A model generated the notes under the pieces. That model had not been told where the DNA came from and ran no database searches. It worked only from the letters and a program-made list of their open reading frames with translations. The translations under genes and the position numbers were made by a program. This document shows positions 18,404 through 29,411 of a stretch of 32,000 nt of DNA, piece by piece (positions within the stretch are counted from its first letter, which is position 1; each line of letters starts with the position of its first letter). This stretch comes from Candidatus Saccharimonadota bacterium (GTDB lineage: Bacteria > Patescibacteriota > Patescibacteriia > 2-12-FULL-60-25): contig CP060222.1 of assembly GCA_023898425.1 (NCBI GenBank), forward strand, positions 60,001 through 92,000, read 5' to 3'.

Positions 18404-21400
18404 ATGATAATCATGAAGTATAAGAAGCATATCTCTGCCATGGTATTGGCGTTATTTGTTATCGCGACAATCGGTACATTTGTTACGCAAAGGTTGGCTG
18501 AATCTGCGACGTCGTACAGCATTAGCGTGGGAGGGACTACGGCATTTACGACAGAGCAAATCGGGACGACTCTTTACACAGTAAATTTAAGTAGTAATAA
18601 CGTTTCGGTTATTGATACGGTAACGAAAACGCTTATTACTACGATCCCTGTCGGTTCGGTTCCGAGAGACCCTGTCGTTGTTGGTACGGATATTTACGTT
18701 GCGAATTCTGGAGCGAATACCGTTTCAGTAATTGATACAAATACCAATACCGTAACAGATACTATTACCGTTGGAACTGGTCCTAGTCGAACAATCCTCG
18801 TTGGGACAGATGTCTATACGATGGATTGGACGTCGAATGCAATCAGCGTTATCGATACAAATACAAAGACCGTATCAAATACTATCGTTATCGGTGTGGG
18901 GAGCAAGATACCGCTATTAGTAGGTACAAAACTTTATATCTCAAATACCAATCTGGGTAACGTAACTGTTATCGATACGCTCACAAAGACCGTTATTACG
19001 ACATTAGCAATCACGCAAGGAGGCTTTAAAATGGGTCTTGCTGGAACCAAGGTTTATGTGTCTGGTCTCAGTGGTGCACTGTCCAATAAGGTTGTTGTTA
19101 TCGATACGTTAACCGATACTGTCGTTGCCACCATCCCCGTCAACGCACAACCTTGGGATTCTTTTGCTGTTGGTACTGAGTTATTTGTGACGCACTATAA
19201 CCCGGGCAACGTGTCCGTTGTCGACACATCAACTGACACCGTCACCAGCGTGATTCCAATGAGTCATTCAGTATCTGGAGCCTTTTTAGTAGGAACAAAG
19301 CTTTACGCGTTTAGTGGGTCTACCAACCAAGTAAGCGTCATTGATACGGTTACGAAAAGCGTCATTGATACGGTTGCGATTGATGGCTTGCCGCGTAGCG
19401 CAAAGCTTTTTGGTAGTCAGCTCTATGTCGCTACCAGTGCTGATAGTCTTAATATTATCAATACGAATACAGATACACTTGTTGAAATCGGCAAACCAGT
19501 TTTAACCGCTACAGATATCTCTGGCAGCATCCTCACCCTCACCTATGACGAAGCGCTTGATACAGGCTCTAATCCAAGTCCATCGGATTATAGCGTTACA
19601 GTTAATGCGGTTCCTGTAACTATTTCAGCTATTCAGGTCGTCAATGCAAATGTTGTTTTGATTTTAAATTCGACAACTATCTCTAGTGATGTTGTTCAAC
19701 TGAGCTATACCGTTCCAGTCAGTAACCCTGTACAGGATGTATCAGGAAATGATGCTAGTAGTTTTGTTGGTGTTACTGCGACGCAAGCTGATTGCTCCAC
19801 CATACAGACAGGGAGCGGTCCATATCATGGCGCACTCGTTGGCACAAAGTACTACGTTTATAACTATGATTATTTTGGAGCTTCAAGTCCAGACACAATA
19901 TCAGTCATTGATACCGTTACAAATGTGAATATCGGAACAATCACCGTAGGTAATTCACCACGGTTTATTATACCAGTGGGTACAGAGCTATATGTCTTTA
20001 ATCAGGACTCTAACAGTATTTCAATCATAGATACGACAACAGATAGCGTAGTTAATACCATTGCTCTTGGGCGTTATATATTGTCCGCTACTCTCGTTGG
20101 TCAATCGATCTATTTATCTGCAGCAGCAACTCCTGCAGTCCTTGTATTAGATACGGTGACAAATACAATTACCGCGACAATACCTTTTCCTGCATTTAAT
20201 AATCCAGGAGCAAGTTTCTTGGTAGGTGATGTTCTATATGTTTCAAAAGGATCAGATATCGTAGCGATAGATACGCTAACAAATACCATAACAAATACGA
20301 TCGCTGTAGCTCAGGGTGGACATGCTTTTTATTTAGTTGGGACACAGCTCTATGCGCTCAACTATAATGGAGGGTCGGTGTCTGTTATTGATACGCTTAC
20401 GAATACCGTTACCGATACCCTAGCTATTGGCGGGCAACCACTGCATGCGACTCTCGTGGGCAATAATTTGTACATAGCTAATCGTGTAAATGTTTTTGTT
20501 GTTGATACGACGACAAATACCGTTATCAATACGCTTGTAGTAGGTTCAATACCTTCTGGTAGCGCGTTGGTGGGCTCACTGCTCTATGTGTTAAATTATT
20601 CATCGCAAAATATCTCTATTGTCGACACGACAAATAATACGGTAGTTGATACTGTCCTTGTTGGCACAAATAGTACACAAATTATTCATATCGGTAATCA
20701 GTTGTATCTTCTAGCTGATTTAGTAAAAAGTAATTTTAAAACGTTCGATCTAAACACAAACGCCCTCACGGCCTGCCCTCTGTCACACGCGCTCGTGTAT
20801 TCTTCTGGCCCCAACGGCTCCATCACCGGCACAGCTCTTCAAATCGTCGCCGACGGAGCCGATGGCACCGCTGTCACGGCTGTCCCAAACTCCGGATACA
20901 AGTTCGCTAATTGGTCAGATGCCTCAACCGCAAATCCAAGAACGGACATAGCCGTTACAAGCAATATCACCGTCACAGCTAACTTCACCAAGATCCCAAG
21001 TCTCGGTGGTGCTGGTGCAGACCCAGGTTGTGTTGGTGTCGGTTGTGGCACAACAACACTCTCTTCAACATCAACAACACCTGCCCCTGTTCTTGTTGGT
21101 CCTGATATCACCAATATTCGTGTTACTGAACTCTCCACATCCACTGCCAGAGTCTCTTGGGATACAAGTGTACCCGCTACAACCGCCTTCTACTTTGGCC
21201 TCAGTGATCTATACGGAAGCGGTTTCCGAGGGGATGCAACTCTTGTCACTTCTCACTCGGTATTACTCAATACGCTGACAGGCCAAGGCAAGACAACCAT
21301 TTATAGCGACGCAACATTCAAGACACTTACCTTTCAAGACTTGGCAGCAAACCCTAAAATCTACGAAGTACAGGTCTCGTATCTCACCGATACAACTGCC

Positions 21401-29380: not shown

Positions 29381-29411
29381 TAGAACGATAGTAGAATCCC
29401 TTAGCAAAGAT

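Follow-up and report, generated by a model that had tools for sequence, protein, structure and literature searches.

In the tandem staphylococcal sdrC-sdrD-sdrE genes, which encode surface proteins of the MSCRAMM class, diverged N-terminal ligand-binding regions are followed by B-repeat sandwiches, a dipeptide repeat and a C-terminal anchor. The archaeal YVTN surface-layer protein of Methanosarcina mazei (1L0Q) is a seven-bladed propeller with PKD domains. For the Patescibacteria (Candidate Phyla Radiation, CPR), host recognition and attachment are to our knowledge largely unknown beyond type IV pili. The babA/babB, sabA/sabB and homA/homB genes of Helicobacter pylori are alike between strains in their 5′ and middle parts and alike within a strain in their 3′ parts (PMC3960876), and the bab-type pattern reflects concerted evolution by RecA-dependent intragenomic gene conversion, with chimeras and variable copy number and locus occupancy (PMC3960876). 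In genome papers on Patescibacteria, large membrane proteins containing FN3 domains appear only as generic candidates for host interaction (PMC13059738, PMC12206443). The locus described here lies within a 32,000-nucleotide (nt) stretch of contig CP060222.1 (assembly GCA_023898425.1, positions 60,001 to 92,000; hereafter the window) and consists of two adjacent same-strand genes, A and B, at window positions 18404-29383. A common architecture of these two genes, proposed in an initial annotation made from the sequence, is borne out by open reading frames (ORFs), hidden Markov models (HMMs) and structure models.

The explanation that we hold to be reasonably probable as a whole is that A and B are paralogues encoding very large Sec-exported, membrane-anchored surface proteins, that both genes are intact, and that their 3′ 2.9 kb would have been made identical by recent non-reciprocal homologous recombination within the chromosome. 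Each protein has a head in which an Ig-like domain links two YVTN propellers. Its stalk runs from an InlB-type repeat through three FN3 domains and a Pro-rich linker to two beta-sandwiches, and its family-specific anchor comprises a long transmembrane (TM) helix, a CarboxypepD_reg-like sandwich, a TM hairpin, a second sandwich and a Thr-Pro tail. The same conversion appears to have taken place earlier and independently in a sister lineage, and a third lineage keeps distinct C-termini. Recombination also moves whole heads, or one propeller on its own, from gene to gene and from genome to genome. The cell would probably display two binding specificities on a common stalk and anchor, for contact with host cells or other surfaces, with the variable face of the propellers binding a host or environmental surface ligand. 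Conversion keeping the co-resident stalks and anchors alike may be a neutral by-product of tandem homology, or may reflect that both have to fit one partner.

Gene A is a single uninterrupted ORF. Gene B, which the initial annotation had read as one ORF while missing four frameshifts, is written as three; with four bases re-inserted it becomes one ORF of 1,763 amino acids (aa) that is collinear with A and 71.6% identical to it overall. Global alignment resolves the 3′ parts into two long tracts separated by a diverged island (Table). The first tract (A 20807-21281 versus B 26373-26847) is 100% identical over 475 nt, the island differs by ~25 mismatches and by a net 39 nt that are deleted in A, and the last tract (A 21351-23688 versus B 26956-29289) has 0 substitutions over 2,338 nt and four 1-nt deletions in B. 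Identity of the C-terminal modules at the DNA level, as originally stated, thus holds for the long tracts but not for the island, the four deletions and the codons of the Thr-Pro tail. The common module begins with the InlB-type repeat, at aa ~802 of A, and has a length of ~960-990 aa. The heads cannot be aligned at the DNA level in the global alignment, and blastn between them gives only three matches, of 40-60 nt, in blades. The 2,338 substitution-free nt adjoin heads with saturated synonymous sites, and the pattern of identity is far beyond chance.

Both genes end in 13 Thr-Pro units, as had been noted from the sequence, and the two repeats carry two synonymous differences in every unit, 26 in total. 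Each array is uniform in its own hexamer, and peptide and copy number (13) are conserved between the genes. The arrays are presumably homogenised internally by slippage, and the 3′ limit of the conversion tract is exactly the start of the repeat. Within the island, gene A has lost the F-strand of its first FN3 domain (FN3-1), which is kept in 7/7 other genes of the eight-gene set defined below, and the Pfam fn3 match to FN3-1 is present in B and absent in A. Neither the window nor four related loci yielded a donor for the island of gene A, and this in-frame lesion looks real.

The identity of the two 3′ modules can be judged against related genomes. At least six related proteins of 1,571-1,599 aa have the full architecture at 42-46% identity, and the layout, called unusual in the initial annotation, is not unique: it recurs in these proteins, and the anchor module is present in at least 2,601 protein clusters. 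Eight genes were compared: the window genes (W_A and W_B), the pairs of L001 (a 1.10-Mb contig of GCA_963852945.1) and L002 (ERZ724529), and the single genes of L079 and L080. L001 and L002, two independent assemblies, have the tandem pair in the same place, with the synteny CAP-C39-RuvB-VTT-[A,B]...aldolase-PfkB, and L079 and L080 have one gene at the syntenic position. C-terminal identity between paralogues (aa) is 100% in the window, 91-99% in L001 and 44-91% in L002, and the corresponding synonymous divergence (dS) is 0, 0.10-0.31 and 0.78-1.76, while the dS of the paralogue heads is saturated (>1.7) in all three genomes. In the window dS is 0.06 across the InlB and FN3 region, which holds the island, and 0 in everything that follows, starting with the Pro-rich region. 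Because C-terminal dS differs by genome while head dS is saturated, the data indicate that gene conversion overwrote the 3′ module on at least two independent occasions that differ in time, and L002 shows the unconverted state with distinct C-termini. At the DNA level, the C-terminus of L1_B is 92% identical to the L2_A type and only 70-80% to the L2_B type, and the flanks of L001 and L002 are 92% identical.

Between genomes, the window stalk is 19-54% identical and the window anchor 68-70% identical to the others, and the converted C-terminal region overall is 19-73% identical to relatives. Purifying selection was rejected as the cause of the identity, given a dS of 0 in a region that is only 19-73% identical in relatives, and the proposed homogenisation of the stalk is accordingly upheld as the product of recombination. 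As in concerted evolution, the anchor segment is more alike within a genome and the head segment more alike between genomes. The FN3 domains are ~50% and the Pro-rich part ~31% identical between genomes, compared with 72% for the head of the alpha type described below; the stalk is constant, as first proposed, only within a genome, and between genomes it diverges faster than the alpha-type head. The window stalk is itself a mosaic. The sandwiches at aa 1261-1456 are missing from L001, L002 and L079 and are present at 49-58% identity in L082, a propeller-less family member from an unrelated locus, and the third FN3 domain of the window is closer to L082 (62%) than to L1_A (40%).

The divergence of the heads recognised by eye in the initial annotation is confirmed, with 52% aa identity over the first 120 aa and 42% over aa 1-795 (45% in propeller 1, 36% in the insert and 41% in propeller 2). 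Compared with L1_A, the head of W_B is 72% identical in all of its regions; its identity to the L2_A head is 59-72% and to the W_A head 36-45%, and W_B, L1_A and L2_A form the alpha type. Mosaics of head and stalk, for which a survey of related genomes had been suggested, do occur: one stalk type is found with four different heads (L1_A, L1_B, L2_A and L80), the stalk and anchor being 77-98% identical by region (89-98% outside the Pro-rich part) and the heads 40-66% identical outside the orthologous pair L1_A/L2_A. Trees of propeller 1 and propeller 2 conflict, and even within this pair propeller 1 is 61% identical with a dS of 1.95, compared with 98% and 0.07 for propeller 2. A tRNA-Leu(UAA) gene lies before the gene or genes in L002, L079 and L080 and between A and B in the window and L001, and because its position varies between loci, the alpha head stands on different sides of the tRNA in different genomes.

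The ratio of non-synonymous to synonymous divergence (dN/dS) by region is 0.05-0.47 everywhere, 0.09-0.41 in the heads and ~0.1 in orthologous alpha heads. Positive selection on the heads was not seen at regional resolution (dN/dS 0.09-0.41, eight saturated sequences). Judged by these values and the mosaic distribution, the heads are old, constrained types under purifying selection that are reassorted between genomes rather than fast-evolving ones. When differences are mapped on the head model, two alternating loops of each blade are variable (mean pairwise identity 0.24-0.47, with 0.34-0.42 for the strand between them), and the two remaining loops are conserved (0.63-0.75). Because alternate loops of a four-stranded antiparallel blade share a face, one face of each propeller is predicted to carry the differences, as a ligand-binding face would.

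Consecutive blades of propeller 2 of gene B (window 25800-26000) have nearly identical 'VSVIDTLTNTVTDTI(A/V)V' segments, and short DNA matches link blades within and between genes (20378-20418 versus 25824-25864 and 25943-25984), which suggests amplification or homogenisation at the level of the blade.

All four deletions in gene B are -1 changes in homopolymers, and they affect 4 of the 10 runs of at least 5 nt in the identical tract. The first of them ends the first ORF at 28487, before any membrane helix. Taken at face value, gene B would be truly frameshifted and would yield a 1,463-aa product of head and stalk without membrane anchor, secreted or held N-terminally, or it would be a decaying pseudogene kept mainly as a reservoir of an alternative head that can recombine into gene A. 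The deletions are present in the sequence as given, the FN3-1 lesion of gene A may indicate that constraint at the locus is relaxed, related genomes get by with one copy, and silent or partial copies act as donors in other antigenic-variation systems. The assembly is also otherwise good, as the window genes compared with orthologues or Pfam profiles show no frameshift: nine flanking genes are each full length and in a single frame relative to their L001 and L002 orthologues, and the other window genes scanned have full-length Pfam matches. We nevertheless consider a truly frameshifted gene B unlikely, since four -1 homopolymer events with 0 substitutions over 2,338 nt form an error-like rather than a mutation-like spectrum, ongoing conversion would erase such differences between A and B, and the tail 3′ of the frameshifts still encodes (TP)13 perfectly through its 26 synonymous differences. 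Two 2.3-kb exact repeats in one contig would also imply long-read assembly, in which polishing reads in exact repeats may favour the already correct copy and leave errors in the other. With good confidence, the four frameshifts can be read as uncorrected homopolymer errors of such an assembly, and gene B is probably intact. A DNA pattern across the first frameshift site, with either homopolymer length, had 0 matches in metagenome contigs, and a protein-based metagenome scan returned only more distant relatives (L082-L085). An exact-sequence search for gene A in the public assemblies covered gave no record.

A long exact repeat with homopolymer errors also marks the region as hard to assemble, and multi-mapping polishing reads might homogenise slightly different copies, both of which would fit a second copy, or a 3′ identity, created in assembly as a duplicated or collapsed repeat. 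Such an artefact is very improbable, as A and B differ in their heads (42% aa identity), their upstream regions, the island with its 39-nt indel and their Thr-Pro codons, a tRNA gene lies between them, and the same tandem pair is syntenic in two independent assemblies, one of which has C-termini that are 91-99% identical (aa). Duplication of copy 2 in assembly was rejected on such grounds.

The domain calls of the initial annotation, namely YVTN propellers, a beta-sandwich insert, an InlB B-repeat, FN3 domains, a Pro-rich region, CarboxypepD_reg-like domains, a multi-pass anchor and a Thr-Pro tail, are all confirmed by HMMs, structure prediction or both, and the anchor can now be described as having three helices. 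At the N-terminus, the helix is followed by an AESA or ADSA motif in 8/8 genes, with A32, S34 and A35 invariant, which resembles a signal-peptidase site and is read here as part of a putative cleavable signal peptide. The NCBIfam YVTN repeat model TIGR02276 matches at 261 bits (cut-off 27.85, E = 2e-79) in 11 stretches, and the Pfam SWM_repeat match spans aa 364-438 of A. In an AlphaFold2 model of the head (49-sequence alignment, predicted local distance difference test score, pLDDT, of 88), two sets of 32 strands and an Ig-like insert are seen, and the YVTN repeats are predicted to fold into closed propellers of approximately eight blades each. The best specific match of this model in the PDB is 1L0Q, the archaeal S-layer YVTN propeller (28% identity, TMt 0.62 in Foldseek), and the remaining top Foldseek matches are generic tandem WD40 proteins. 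Exactly four cysteines are conserved, all in the ectodomain (gene A aa 464, 791, 876 and 881, with codons at window ~19793, 20774, 21029 and 21044, and equivalents in all eight genes). The pair bracketing propeller 2 could form a ring-closing disulfide, the other two make up a CxxxxC loop in the linker that precedes FN3-1, and the anchor module has no cysteine.

The C-terminal part (aa 1290-1761) was modelled with AlphaFold2 from 33 sequences (pLDDT 88.9) and consists of four beta-sandwiches and three helices, in the order two sandwiches, a straight helix, a sandwich, a hairpin (aa 1614-1643 and 1647-1666) and a last sandwich. In Foldseek the whole anchor model matches only generic strings of sandwiches of the CnaB, SdrD-B and pilin types, with TM-scores of at most 0.18, and a carboxypeptidase D regulatory domain (3mn8) matches it with a root-mean-square deviation of 3.1 Å over 86 residues. 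Weak Pfam matches to beta-sandwiches of the bMG3/NOMO type are found as well. The fold search of the whole anchor model gave no solved structure with the same arrangement.

Anchoring through LPXTG, a lipobox, PGF-CTERM or SLH domains was rejected, as all are absent from the motif scan and Pfam matches; LPx[TSA]G is absent from all eight proteins, and no SLH family is among the Pfam matches at E <= 0.01. The Pfam scan gave no leucine-rich-repeat match, and the N-terminal domain of internalins is absent.

Table. Positions of the genes, predicted domains, sequence tracts and neighbouring elements of the locus, numbered in the window unless a related locus is named.
Feature	Position	Strand	Description
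Terminator-like hairpin	18310-18343	+	15-bp stem and T run; between VTT-domain gene and gene A
Gene A	18404-23794	+	Intact ORF, 1,796 aa, surface protein
Putative signal peptide of A	18404-18508	+	aa 1-35; K-rich n-region, hydrophobic helix aa 7-27, AESA motif
YVTN beta-propeller 1 of A	18518-19462	+	aa 39-353; 32 strands, ~8 blades
Ig-like beta-sandwich insert (SWM_repeat)	19502-19783	+	aa 367-460; PF13753, 36.4 bits vs cut-off 27
YVTN beta-propeller 2 of A	19799-20749	+	aa 466-782; 32 strands; flanked by conserved Cys464 and Cys791
InlB B-repeat-like domain (Flg_new_2)	20792-20995	+	aa 797-864; PF18998, E = 9e-11; converted tract starts inside, at 20807
Homogenised (gene-converted) tract, copy A	20807-23688	+	From alignment; abrupt boundaries
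Three FN3-like domains	21092-21898	+	aa 897-1165; fn3 / Pur_ac_phosph_N
Diverged island, copy A	21282-21350	+	13 aa lost, including FN3-1 F-strand (EGxxYHFxxQAxD)
Pro/Glu-rich linker	21899-22183	+	aa 1166-1260; fastest-diverging region between genomes
Two membrane-proximal beta-sandwich domains	22184-22771	+	aa 1261-1456; second PEGA-like
TM1	22805-22900	+	Single 32-residue helix, aa 1468-1499, then RKRNK
CarboxypepD_reg / SdrD_B-like beta-sandwich 1	22928-23221	+	aa 1509-1606; PF17210, 35.8 bits vs cut-off 29.7; predicted cytoplasmic
TM2-TM3 helical hairpin	23243-23401	+	aa 1614-1666; K/R clusters at both outer ends
CarboxypepD_reg-like beta-sandwich 2	23429-23671	+	aa 1676-1756; predicted cytoplasmic
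(TP)13 repeat of A	23687-23766	+	(ACACCG)13
tRNA-Leu(UAA)	23928-24014	+	Spacer between genes A and B; positional marker of locus rearrangement
Gene B	24096-29383	+	Three ORFs as written: 24096-28487, 28433-28894, 29036-29383
Head of B (alpha type)	24096-26372	+	Orthologous to L001-A and L002-A heads
Homogenised tract, copy B	26373-29289	+	From alignment
Diverged island, copy B	26848-26955	+	FN3-1 intact
Frameshift site 1	28373-28377 (deletion 28378)	+	A5 in B vs A6 in A (22773-22778)
Frameshift site 2	28844-28847 (deletion 28848)	+	A4 in B vs A5 in A
Frameshift site 3	28876-28880 (deletion 28881)	+	A5 in B vs A6 in A
Frameshift site 4	29025-29028 (deletion 29029)	+	G4 in B vs G5 in A
(TP)13 repeat of B	29287-29364	+	(ACGCCT)13
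17-bp strong hairpin	29412-29450	unassigned	Between gene B and convergent aldolase gene
CAP/C39 block	window 14338-16234; L001 92-1957; L002 1079-2941		
tRNA-Leu(UAA) in relatives	L001 8904-8990; L002 4979-5065; L079 7343-7429; L080 797-883		

The anchor module extends far beyond this locus. A profile of the module matches 9,264 representative proteins at E <= 1e-3 and at least 2,601 at E <= 1e-30, with matches covering profile positions ~5-463, and nearly all of the matched proteins, which are 430-4,040 aa long, carry the module at their extreme C-terminus. The family is represented in Uhrbacteria, Magasanikbacteria, Falkowbacteria, Buchananbacteria and Peribacteria, among other groups. FN3 domains together with the anchor are found in 7/8 sampled members and a propeller in 0/8, and some short members have pilin-like N-termini. 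The propeller-less protein of L082 aligns to W_A aa 855-1758 with 52% identity over ~900 aa, and the anchor is the most conserved part between genomes (68-73%). The propeller/SWM/propeller head occurs separately at 30-40% identity in many Patescibacteria, fused to PF01471 instead of an FN3 stalk. From these distributions, the window proteins belong to a common, uncharacterised envelope family of Patescibacteria that gained a double-propeller head in this lineage. That the family is uncharacterised, as initially supposed, agrees with literature searches on Patescibacteria, which gave nothing specific on this protein family or its anchor. In L082 (8300-17643), the anchor protein (1,070 aa) is followed directly by a 1,998-aa ORF with a Pro/Glu-rich C-terminal tail and otherwise no Pfam domain, which may be another large surface protein.

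The positive-inside rule is the basis for orienting membrane helices. Among 33 family members, the mean number of K/R residues per ~15 aa is 5.1 after TM1, 4.4 before TM2 and 4.2 after TM3, compared with 0.3 in the turn between TM2 and TM3, and the segment before TM1 is net acidic. Because of these K/R clusters and the three-helix AlphaFold2 model, we infer that head and stalk lie outside and that both CarboxypepD_reg-like domains and the Thr-Pro tail would be cytoplasmic. A four-pass topology with all domains outside was considered because the two units of helix plus domain look homologous and the first hydrophobic stretch would then be a hairpin; it is disfavoured by the single straight 32-residue helix of the AlphaFold2 model and by the K/R pattern.

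The predicted topology places ~250 aa of conserved folded domains on the K/R-rich side in 33/33 family members, and the anchor is the best conserved part between genomes, both of which would suit transmembrane sensors whose propeller head detects an external ligand and whose cytoplasmic sandwiches relay the signal or tether a partner. In Actinobacteria, filamentous surface proteins that end in a diversified beta-propeller serve as threat sensors (EsrA, PMC13622651), which also speaks for such a role. On the other hand, no signalling domain (kinase, HAMP, GGDEF etc.) was recognised in Pfam, the neighbourhood has no conserved signalling partner, and CarboxypepD_reg-like domains are normally extracytoplasmic, the topology being a prediction, so that a sensor function appears improbable.

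A more structural role would accord with several of the same features. The head's best specific structural relative is an S-layer propeller, the anchor model also matches the archaeal S-layer stalk protein SlaB and Bacillus Sap S-layer domains, and a large ectodomain held in the membrane at its C-terminal end is reminiscent of archaeal S-layer glycoproteins. Members of the anchor family are found very widely, typically as ~1,100-aa proteins of FN3 domains and anchor, as fits a housekeeping envelope role, and S-layer families with a conserved anchor and variable exposed parts are known, e.g., the sap genes of Campylobacter fetus. The proteins might then be an S-layer-like coat or spacer, and head variability a means of evading phages or predators for which the coat is the receptor. 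We regard this as rather unlikely, since Pfam shows no SLH or other known lattice-forming domains, and a copy number of one or two among close relatives with a lineage-specific head is less expected of an essential coat. A coat would also be compatible with a contact function rather than exclusive of it. A role in contact with hosts or surfaces is plausible for A and B.

Several points weigh against the account of two intact, exchangeable contact proteins on a converted stalk and anchor. The adhesin role derives only from domain types and the pattern of variation, and with a regional dN/dS below 1 everywhere, no arms race shows directly. The cytoplasmic placement comes solely from the positive-inside rule and the AlphaFold2 helix count, and CarboxypepD_reg-like domains are usually extracytoplasmic. 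The loss of the FN3-1 F-strand in A and the four frameshifts in B could mean that the locus is decaying in this genome, and if polishing made two slightly different copies uniform, the 100% identity may be overstated.

For the contact reading, the locus offers a concrete, testable host-contact candidate with a defined anatomy of head, stalk and anchor and with exchanged heads, and if the heads set the host range, typing them could predict which partners uncultured lineages have. Recurrent conversion would show that the cell needs its co-resident stalks and anchors alike, although a neutral by-product of tandem homology is also proposed. The anchor module appears as one common envelope-protein design of the phylum, and its predicted cytoplasmic sandwiches are unusual. 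Going further, and as a doubtful extension only, the C-terminal module may be an undescribed Patescibacteria-wide anchor that couples exchangeable heads, here host-contact double propellers, to a cytoplasmic partner through folded sandwiches inside the cell, with conversion keeping the paralogues compatible with that partner. In that case A and B would form a device for host recognition, with two specificities mounted on one shared transmembrane coupling unit, and the module would provide a handle on how ultra-small episymbionts link surface contact to the cell interior. On the practical side, exact repeats in long-read metagenome-assembled genomes can keep homopolymer errors in one copy and so mimic pseudogenes.

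The flanks of the locus include, on the 5′ side, genes for a tyrosine recombinase, tRNAs, an SPFH protein, NrdD and its activase, and radical-SAM and methyltransferase proteins, then, nearer to gene A, a CAP-domain protein, a C39 peptidase, RuvB and a VTT-domain protein; on the 3′ side lie genes for a class II aldolase and a PfkB kinase. RuvB shares 92% identity with proteins labelled 'Patescibacteria group bacterium' and 73-78% with several from 'Candidatus Uhrbacteria', which confirms the assignment to the Patescibacteria; judged from this gene, the source organism would be an Uhrbacteria-related Patescibacterium. Synteny is conserved just 5′ of RuvB and the surface-protein locus for the secreted CAP-domain protein and the C39-type peptidase domain protein, as well as for two small unknown proteins. 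The anaerobic ribonucleotide reductase NrdD and its adjacent radical-SAM activase (window 6373-8948) are consistent with an anaerobic lifestyle. The tyrosine recombinase gene (phage-integrase family, 500-1507) lies ~0.8 kb from tRNA-Arg(UCU) (2342-2418), separated from it by small unannotated ORFs, and this segment could be the remnant of an integrated element. The accessory genes between the VTT gene and the aldolase gene vary (ADH, DUF1801, MFS, EamA, DAO, DUF305, DUF3592), and the interval looks like a hot spot of recombination or insertion.

An extended -10-like element, TGCTATAAT, lies between the terminator-like hairpin and the start of gene A. Because the upstream regions of A and B are unrelated to each other, each gene seems to have its own promoter region. 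The hairpin downstream of gene B looks like a bidirectional terminator. No reverse transcriptase was found among the window ORFs scanned, and hypervariation driven by a diversity-generating retroelement was rejected on this basis. The only long repeats in the window are the tracts of A and B.

Compared with the bab genes, the locus shows the same opposition of head and C-terminus, as the head of W_B is 72% identical to that of L1_A and the C-termini are 100% identical within the genome and 31-70% between genomes. The Bab proteins, however, are beta-barrel outer-membrane proteins of a diderm, whereas the window proteins are helically anchored and belong to a Patescibacterium; the bab loci are dispersed and the window genes tandem; and bab phase variation operates via CT dinucleotide repeats, whereas here only short homopolymers (4-6 nt) are involved and the frameshifts are probably errors. 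Likeness to the Sdr proteins is seen in one window domain that passes the Pfam SdrD_B threshold, in the match of the anchor model to SdrD B-domain structures and in the (TP)13 repeat, which parallels the SD dipeptide repeat. Unlike the Sdr proteins, the window proteins have no LPXTG signal and no DEv-IgG A domain, their head is a double beta-propeller, their anchor has three helices with interleaved beta-sandwiches, and their dipeptide repeat stands after the anchor rather than before it.

The M. mazei protein 1L0Q shares the TIGR02276 repeats and the order of a surface-exposed propeller followed by Ig-like domains, but the window proteins are bacterial and have two ~8-blade propellers split by an SWM-type domain, an FN3 stalk and a different anchor. 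They also differ from archaeal C-terminally anchored S-layer glycoproteins in having no PGF motif, three interleaved helices and a Thr-Pro repeat after the last domain, and with internalins they have only the InlB B-repeat-like domain (PF18998) in common. Among patescibacterial proteins, 'SwmB domain-containing' or YVTN double-propeller proteins (Paceibacterota, Falkowbacteria and others) have the same succession of propeller, SWM_repeat and propeller; they end in PF01471 (PG_binding_1) without FN3 stalk and membrane anchor, and are likewise uncharacterised. Proteins with FN3 and CarboxypepD_reg domains, annotated as 'carboxypeptidase-like regulatory domain-containing protein', match the stalk and anchor end to end, but typical members are ~1,100 aa long without propeller or InlB repeat, to which the window proteins add an 800-aa head. 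The evolutionary mode of the locus is thus a classical one, the concerted evolution of paralogous surface-protein genes, in a protein family that is unstudied and has a distinctive anchor.

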